Sequence record: EF517045.1
From: a phage
Strand: one strand, 5' to 3'
Length of the DNA: 541 nucleotides
Shown here one piece after another: positions 1 to 541 of this stretch (its first letter is position 1; every line of letters starts with the position of its first letter). The notes below the pieces were generated by a model, which was given only the letters and a program-made list of their open reading frames with translations, had not been told where the DNA came from and made no database searches. Both the position numbers and the translations under genes were made by a program.

Positions 1-292
1 TACTGTGGAGGCAGGACGAGATGAGATGGCTGTAGGCTCTCACGCTAAGGGTTACAACCACAACTCTATCGGCGTCTGCCTTGTTGGTGGTATCAACGAT
101 AAAGGTAAGTTCGACGCTAACTTTACGCCAGCCCAAATGCAATCCCTTCGCTCACTGCTTGTCACACTGCTGGCTAAGTACGAAGGCGCTGTGCTTCGCG
201 CCCATCATGAGATAGCGCCGAAGGCTTGCCCTTCGTTCGACCTTAAGCGTTGGTGGGAGAAGAACGAACTGGTCACTTCTGATCGTGGATAA
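1..292 (+). CDS. 3.5: T7-type lysozyme / N-acetylmuramoyl-L-alanine amidase (gp3.5), C-terminal part; 5' end lies upstream of the window
   Basis: ORF track 5..292 (95 aa); the frame is open back to position 2, so the GTG at 5 is an internal Val codon, not a start. The translation ...EAGRDEMAVGSHAKGYNHNSIGVCLVGG...LRAHHEIAPKACPSFDLKRWWEKNELVTSDRG is near-identical to my recollection of the C-terminal two thirds of phage T7 lysozyme (Amidase_2/PGRP fold). The AHHE..PKAC segment carries the equivalents of zinc ligand His122 (203-205), catalytic Lys128 (221-223) and zinc ligand Cys130 (227-229). TAA stop at 290-292. Confidence 0.93.
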   Translation, partial: TVEAGRDEMAVGSHAKGYNHNSIGVCLVGGINDKGKFDANFTPAQMQSLRSLLVTLLAKYEGAVLRAHHEIAPKACPSFDLKRWWEKNELVTSDRG

Positions 293-293
293 T

Positions 294-316
294 TAATTGA
301 ACTCACTAAAGGGAGA
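294..316 (+). promoter_or_regulatory. T7 RNA polymerase promoter, class II (phi3.8-type); predicted transcription start at G311
   Basis: TAATTGAACTCACTAAAGGGAGA aligns without gaps to the 23-nt T7 consensus TAATACGACTCACTATAGGGAGA (-17 to +6), with mismatches only at -13, -12, -11 and -2. The -9 to -3 core CTCACTA and the +1 to +6 GGGAGA are intact. It starts 2 nt after the gene 3.5 stop, and +1 is 45 nt upstream of the next ATG, which fits the phi3.8 arrangement in T7 as I recall it. Confidence 0.85.
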
Positions 317-331
317 CCACAGCGGTTTCCC
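311..331 (+). other. Predicted RNA stem-loop at the 5' end of the phi3.8 transcript (8-bp stem, 5-nt loop)
   Basis: GGGAGACC (311-318) can pair with GGTTTCCC (324-331) around loop ACAGC (319-323): three G-C pairs at the base, then A-U, G-U, A-U, C-G, C-G. Hand-folded only; no energy was computed. Confidence 0.4.
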
Positions 332-343
332 TTTGTTCGCATT

Positions 344-349
344 GAAGGT
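344..349 (+). promoter_or_regulatory. Shine-Dalgarno / ribosome-binding site for gene 3.8
   Basis: GAAGGT at 344-349, followed by a 6-nt spacer (CAAATA) and the ATG at 356-358; purine-rich and complementary to the 16S rRNA 3' end at canonical spacing. Confidence 0.6.
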
Positions 350-355
350 CAAATA

Positions 356-541
356 ATGCGCAAGTCTTATAAACAATTCTATAAGGCTTCGAGGAGACAT
401 ATCCAAGTGTGAAAGGCAGCCAATGGACCTATACCAAAAGGTTATTATATAGACCACATTGACGGCAATCCACTCAACGACGCCTTAGACAATCTCCATC
501 TGGCTCTCCCAAAAGAAAACTCATGGAATATGAAGACTCCA
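356..541 (+). pseudogene. 3.8: Gene 3.8 homologue (small HNH-endonuclease-like protein) interrupted by an in-frame TGA at 410-412; HNH motif still encoded downstream in the same frame; 3' end beyond the window
   Basis: ATG 356 with SD, then MRKSYKQFYKASRRHIQV followed by TGA (410-412). The same frame continues without further stops to position 541 as KAANGPIPKGYYIDHIDGNPLNDALDNLHLALPKENSWNMKTP, which contains the HNH signature (His 455-457 in DHIDGN, Asn 467-469, NL 491-496, EN 515-520). Both other + frames hit stops soon after 410. HNH_3-type phage proteins normally have Trp-Glu where this sequence has stop-Lys. The pseudogene call assumes the TGA is real and not a sequencing error. Confidence 0.6.

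Follow-up and report, generated by a model that had tools for sequence, protein, structure and literature searches.

The stretch of phage DNA analysed here (sequence record EF517045.1; 541 nt in all, hereafter 'the window') aligns over its entire length, ungapped, to positions 10870-11410 of the bacteriophage T7 genome (NC_001604.1), with 97.8% identity, 12 substitutions, and 0 indels; the other 529 positions are those of the Dunn-Studier T7 sequence (V01146/NC_001604). The gene order under the window, taken from the T7 annotation, is colinear: gene 3.5, promoter phi3.8, and gene 3.8 (Table 1). The promoter contains 0 substitutions and is the same as in T7. Pfam assigns the T7 proteins to Amidase_2 (gp3.5) and HNH_3 (gp3.8), and comparison of the lysozyme fragment in the window with the T7 lysozyme structures (PDB 1LBA/1ARO) shows identity at 94 of 96 residues, the exceptions being one D>N and one V>I replacement. 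We conclude that the window is a segment of the Escherichia phage T7 genome spanning gene 3.5, phi3.8, and gene 3.8.

Table 1. Features of the window and substitutions relative to T7 (5' neighbours are those of the mutated G, read on its own strand).
Feature	Position in window	Position in T7	Strand	5' neighbour of G	Basis
T7 gene 3.5, 3' part (lysozyme / N-acetylmuramoyl-L-alanine amidase), codons 56-151 and TAA stop (290-292)	2..292		+		T7 annotation
T7 RNA polymerase promoter phi3.8, TAATTGAACTCACTAAAGGGAGA, +1 at 311	294..316	+1 at 11180	+		T7 annotation
Gene 3.8 ribosome-binding site, GGAGG to GAAGG by G345A	343..347		+		Comparison with T7
T7 gene 3.8, 5' part (HNH_3 endonuclease homologue), first 62 codons	356..541		+		Annotation, Pfam
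G>A, gp3.5 D87N (GAC>AAC)	95	10964	+	C	Alignment
G>A, gp3.5 codon 126, first base (GTG>ATA, V126I together with 214)	212	11081	+	G	Alignment
G>A, gp3.5 codon 126, third base	214	11083	+	T	Alignment
C>T (G>A on - strand), gp3.5 D149D, silent	283	11152	+	G	Alignment
G>A, intergenic, in gene 3.8 ribosome-binding site	345	11214	+	G	Alignment
C>T (G>A on - strand), gp3.8 P12S	389	11258	+	G	Alignment
G>A, gp3.8 R14R, silent	397	11266	+	G	Alignment
G>A, gp3.8 W19stop (TGG>TGA), stop codon 410-412	412	11281	+	G	Alignment
G>A, gp3.8 E20K (GAG>AAG), same GGG run as 412	413	11282	+	G	Alignment
G>A, gp3.8 G24G, silent	427	11296	+	G	Alignment
G>A, gp3.8 R48H (CGT>CAT), within HNH_3 domain	498	11367	+	C	Alignment
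C>T (G>A on - strand), gp3.8 N58N, silent	529	11398	+	T	Alignment

All 12 differences from T7 are G:C>A:T transitions, nine of them appearing as G>A and three as C>T on the + strand, and comparison with NC_001604 reveals no transversion and no indel across all 541 nt. Changes are present at 12 of 269 G:C sites vs. 0 of 272 A:T sites (Fisher P = 2e-4); overall, about 2% of sites are changed (2.2%), corresponding to 4.5% of G:C pairs. A preliminary description of the window had claimed that its differences from T7 are G:C>A:T transitions only, and the pairwise alignment bears this out. The six codon deviations on which that description relied (D87N, V126I, P12S, W19stop, E20K, and R48H) are all real and were placed correctly, and the T7 reference does not carry the Asn, Ile, Ser, His, and stop in question. 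The valine codon had been given as GTA; T7 has GTG, and the V126I codon carries two G>A changes. The affected span had been given as 95-499, of which the start stands and the end does not, the span being 95-529. The description had listed 6 of the 12 changes and had missed those at 214, 283, 345, 397, 427, and 529, all of which are silent or non-coding; since these six are also all G:C>A:T, the transition-only claim is strengthened.

The outgroup alignment used to assign polarity comprised T7, a second T7 record (AY264774), NC-A, YpsP-G, C5, IME390, Salmonella phage C2, T3, and a Klebsiella phage. G or C is present at all 12 sites in T7 and the phages closest to it; departures from the T7 base occur only in T3 and the Klebsiella phage, both distant, at third-codon positions 214 and 397. 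Relative to these eight outgroup records, the A/T states are derived and are private to the window. Over the same window, natural relatives (NC-A, YpsP-G, C2, C5, IME390, and T3) differ from T7 by 17-37 substitutions each; transitions and transversions are about equally frequent (1:1), and changes occur in all directions. Read from T7, the G:C>A:T share among these natural differences is 33-39% (pooled, 50/136 = 0.37), and at a share of 0.37 the chance of observing 12 of 12 G:C>A:T changes is P ~6e-6. Approximately 100 laboratory T7 records do not differ from one another over the window; each is 97.8% identical to it, and none of the 12 variants is present in any of them. Searched against 50,697 INPHARED phage records, a 50-nt query covering the densest cluster of changes (383-432) finds as its best match, at 90% identity, wild-type T7. 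Exact-pattern scans with three variant-bearing stretches show these to be absent from IMG/VR, GTDB genomes, and JGI metagenomes; as a positive control for the IMG/VR scan, the wild-type pattern recovered T7. The preliminary description had proposed that the DNA is a mutagenised laboratory derivative and not a natural isolate. This proposal is supported: a laboratory derivative is favoured over a natural isolate because 529 positions are identical to T7, because the states at the other positions are derived, and because the spectrum of natural relatives is mixed.

The two genes in the window differ in what the substitutions do to them. The gp3.5 frame is open; D87N and V126I affect residues that are invariant in every relative examined, and the changes at 214 and 283, both of silent type, also lie in this frame. 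Gene 3.8 is truncated to 18 residues by TGG>TGA at codon 19, and its coding part contains six changes besides the stop: P12S, R14R, E20K, G24G, R48H, and N58N. Upstream of it, the ribosome-binding site is GGAGG in T7 and NC-A, GGAGA in YpsP-G, and GAAGG in the window. Gene 3.8 is thus inactivated in the window, through the combination of W19stop and a weakened ribosome-binding site. Gene 3.8 has been described as non-essential (PMC6042481), and many laboratory-evolved T7 genomes lack all or part of it, their matches stopping at window position 321, 384, or 396 and being followed by the primase gene. The consequences for the genes are consistent with relaxed selection on a dispensable gene 3.8. 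The proportion of G:C sites changed is 4/157 in the lysozyme part vs. 8/112 in the rest of the window, a difference in the direction expected under selection that is not significant (P = 0.08). The counts of synonymous, missense, and nonsense changes are too few for a test.

For the analysis of flanking context, each mutated G was read on its own strand, and all 269 G:C sites served as background. The 5' neighbour of the mutated G is G at 8 of 12 sites vs. 67 of 269 sites (25%) in the background (Fisher P = 0.002); the remaining 5' neighbours are C at two sites, T at two sites, and A at none. The 5'-A class accordingly accounts for 0/12 vs. 27% of the background, and, with n = 12 only, 5' purines combined give P = 0.23. 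The 3' neighbour of the mutated G is flat (A 4, T 4, G 2, C 2). On the C strand, the bias falls 3' of C (CpC), the bases 5' of the mutated C being T 4, A 4, C 2, and G 2 (background about 25% each), and a TC, CC, or WRC preference at the mutated C is absent among the 12 sites. In C>T mutagenesis by SN1 methylating agents, which is driven by O6-methylguanine, the characteristic contexts are CpC and CpT; that is, 5'-purine-G (PMC12556801). The 5'-G flank bias points to an SN1 methylator such as MNNG over a deaminating agent or enzyme, and we grade this flank context as suggestive rather than decisive because the CpT half of the SN1 rule is absent (0/12). Of the two classes of mutagen named in the preliminary description, alkylating and deaminating, the bias (8/12, P = 0.002) favours the former (MNNG) and disfavours the latter.

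The mutated bases, in order along the + strand, are G, G, G, C, G, C, G, G, G, G, G, C, with the two types interleaved; lesions thus fall on both strands, runs coordinated by strand are absent, and the 9:3 split between strands is not significant (P = 0.09). The adjacent pair at 412-413 has a chance probability of P = 0.2-0.3. Clustering of substitutions, of the kind produced by MNNG co-mutation, is likewise not significant (two pairs within 2 nt; P ~0.08).

Taken together, the results make it probable that the phage behind the window was a laboratory derivative of standard T7, carried through many rounds of lytic growth in the presence of a chemical mutagen specific for G:C>A:T. The spectrum, its polarity, the flank bias, and the effects on the genes are shown by the data; the mutagen, the history of passage, and the experiment concerned are inferred, the mutagen being most likely of the nitrosoguanidine (MNNG) type. 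According to this hypothesis, MNNG would methylate guanine at O6, most readily where the preceding base is also a purine. The polymerase replicating T7 would then pair O6-methylguanine with T, and one more round of copying would make the G:C>A:T change permanent; depending on the strand that was methylated, it would be seen on the + strand as G>A or as C>T. Over repeated cycles, probably involving bottlenecks, about 2% of sites would have changed. Selection would hold the lysozyme frame open, and the non-essential gene 3.8 would be free to gain a stop codon, a weaker ribosome-binding site, and missense changes. Counting against this reading, the Springman nitrosoguanidine population of 2010 reportedly carries about 245 mutations per genome, and the density in the window, 2.2%, is roughly 3-4 times higher.

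The same spectrum might have been produced by a different G:C>A:T-specific laboratory treatment: hydroxylamine on free virions, EMS, bisulfite- or nitrous-type deamination, or repeated heat. Hydroxylamine yields N4-hydroxycytosine, which pairs with A; EMS yields O6-ethylguanine; and heat deaminates cytosine. All of these treatments give mainly G:C>A:T, and the spectrum alone does not separate the agents. The 5'-G enrichment (P = 0.002), however, is the flank effect of O6-methylguanine and SN1 methylators, and to our knowledge a 5'-G flank effect has not been described for hydroxylamine or for heat deamination. Hydroxylamine has been applied to T7, giving predominantly GC>AT and no more than 8 mutations per genome (Bull 2013, as cited in PMC6042481); at that ceiling per treatment, a 40-kb genome would need on the order of 100 treatments to reach a divergence of 2.2%. 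Heat raises G:C>A:T in phage T4 but also gives G:C>C:G transversions (PMC8923235), of which the window has none. We regard a treatment of this kind as unlikely, if still deserving of consideration.

An origin outside biology, either as a T7 sequence altered or simulated in silico or as a sequencing or assembly artefact, the template being T7 spike-in DNA that was damaged or had undergone partial bisulfite conversion, is very unlikely. The absence of an identical sequence from the four collections searched, the length of the source record (just 541 nt), and the C>T and G>A changes typical of damage or conversion would all agree with it. A 5'-G flank bias, however, would not be expected of a simple simulation, and a bisulfite or damage artefact on one read or one strand would give C>T only or G>A only, whereas the window has both, interleaved. 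Bisulfite, moreover, would convert most C, and the window shows conversion at 3 of 135; and an open lysozyme frame beside a disrupted dispensable gene resembles a viable phage.

A shade less probable again is enzymatic deamination of cytosine, whether by an APOBEC/AID-family or bacterial DNA deaminase acting in host defence or as a toxin, by an engineered enzyme (a base editor, or a deaminase fused to a polymerase), or in the course of transcription, on the non-template strand. Deaminases yield only C>T and G>A, as in the window; APOBEC/AID hypermutation of viral DNA is similarly exclusive and frequently creates TGG>TGA/TAG stops; and a TGG>TGA knockout is the type of change for which base editors serve. 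The window nevertheless differs from APOBEC/AID hypermutation in lacking TC, CC, or WRC preference and in having its bias on the 3' side of C, not the 5' side as for APOBEC/AID and the other DNA cytosine deaminases known, and a deaminase moving processively along one strand would not be expected to leave the G>A and C>T changes interleaved, as they are on the + strand. Deamination linked to transcription predicts C>T on the + (non-template) strand, whereas G>A predominates, 9:3, and 12 changes over 435 nt are a misfit to the editing window of a guide-RNA-directed base editor.

We give very little credence to a natural close relative of T7 with G:C>A:T differences by chance, or to a UV-mutagenised line. 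Natural Teseptimavirus relatives at 93-95% identity do exist, but the natural relatives compared have about 1:1 transitions to transversions and changes in both directions, which is the basis of the P ~6e-6 above, and the states in the window are all derived and unique. As for UV, 10 of the 12 sites are dipyrimidine sites, and the changes at 412-413 form a GG>AA (= CC>TT) tandem; the dipyrimidine share is, however, not above the 77% background (P = 0.45), the sites at 498 (ACG) and 529 (ACA) are non-dipyrimidine, and the lone tandem is explicable by chance (P = 0.2-0.3, as above). UV-evolved T7, furthermore, has few fixed changes, the rare mutations being mostly GC>TA (PMC6042481). Of similarly low probability is a spectrum generated by a cellular process during infection, such as host anti-phage alkylation or deamination or a dNTP-pool skew, with the window a surviving hypermutated escapee; the process might be a naturally occurring activity that alkylates guanine at O6 and shares the preference for a 5' G.

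Under the preferred reading, a T7 line grown in an MNNG-type mutagen, the window is an object of an already known kind: nitrosoguanidine-grown T7 lines have been published since 1992, and the window holds no new biology. It matters chiefly to annotation and quality control: it is best handled as a T7 derivative that was mutagenised artificially, and it should not serve as an instance of natural T7 diversity, of a natural gene 3.8 pseudogene, or of natural variation at lysozyme D87 or V126. It also provides a small, clean example of how spectrum, outgroup polarity, and flank context can, in combination, identify the class of a mutagen from 541 bases.

Precedents for such a history are well represented in work on T7, lysates of which are routinely diversified with MNNG (PMC3470554). 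On adaptation of T7 in nitrosoguanidine, 11 nonsense mutations arose, all GC>AT (Cunningham 1997, as summarised in PMC5850294). For T7 in high nitrosoguanidine, the rate given is ~4 viable mutations per genome per infection (Springman 2010, as cited in PMC6042481). After nitrosoguanidine or hydroxylamine, GC>AT dominates in T7 (Springman 2010 and Bull 2013, as cited in PMC6042481; also PMC8923235). The experimental T7 phylogeny comprises 63 variable sites in 1091 bp for 9 isolates (Hillis 1992; PMC1409768), a divergence similar in order of magnitude to that of the window. The preliminary description had called the spectrum of the window typical of published T7 mutation-accumulation lines, which agrees with the dominance of GC>AT that these accounts of nitrosoguanidine T7 lines describe (PMC5850294, PMC6042481).

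Compared with known mutational signatures, the window resembles that of SN1 agents (MNNG, MNU, temozolomide; COSMIC SBS11) in comprising C>T only and in being enriched for C followed by C (8/12); it differs from COSMIC SBS11 in that the CpT (5'-A-G) component is 0/12, although 12 sites do not suffice to fit a signature formally. The window also has none of the T>C changes that MNNG can cause instead in human cells (PMC10114081). Compared with known T7 material, the window resembles the Springman 2010 (MNNG) and Bull 2013 (hydroxylamine) populations in the pattern of mutagen-grown phage with GC>AT dominating, and differs from them in that those were large populations analysed as population sequence. 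The related deposited T7 genome GU071091, the only one in the phage collection, is wild type across the window. The closest likeness in kind is to the T7 nitrosoguanidine lines (Hillis 1992, Bull 1993, Cunningham 1997), with which the window shares a T7 ancestor, a near-pure G:C>A:T spectrum, divergence at the percent level in segments of about 1 kb, and GC>AT nonsense mutations in dispensable genes. Relative to the Hillis 1992 tree, the density in the window (2.2%) is somewhat above, at about twice, a rough per-tip-lineage estimate, and a stand-alone record of 541 nt would fit the partial sequences of the Hillis 1992 era.

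Codon 24 of gene 3.8 is GGG (Gly) in T7, GGA in the window and TGG (Trp) in the natural T7 relative NC-A. Comparison of the codons shows that natural variation at this position is a transversion, in contrast to the change in the window.

Within gene 3.5, T7 record AY264774 carries a TG>GT swap at window positions 192-193 (T7 11061-11062). The swap is present in AY264774 alone: V01146/NC_001604 and every other T7 record compared have TG. The window agrees with V01146 at these positions, and therefore its ancestor had the standard sequence there. In AY264774 it could be explained either by a difference between strains or by a transposition introduced during sequencing.

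Compared with T7, the phi3.8 promoter (window 294-316) contains no substitutions. The GGGAGA run inside this promoter is rich in the favoured context, a G preceded by a 5' G. With so few events, the intact promoter could reflect either chance or selection.

The phage collection includes many T7 genomes evolved in the laboratory that have lost gene 3.8 by deletion, such that primase/helicase directly adjoins lysozyme. The deletion breakpoints span window positions 321-396. One of them, at window 384, recurs in several MZ3752xx records, which suggests that the corresponding deletion is shared or repeat-mediated.

Breakpoints of gene 3.8 deletions in T7 records
Record	Window position at which match stops
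PP384394	321
MZ375241 and relatives	384
PV223882	396

Klebsiella phage vB_Kpn24-P1 (L008), a distant relative, has an additional small annotated ORF at 356-475, between the amidase gene and the HNH endonuclease gene. The interval that in T7 contains only a promoter and a ribosome-binding site contains, in vB_Kpn24-P1, an ORF of about 39 aa.
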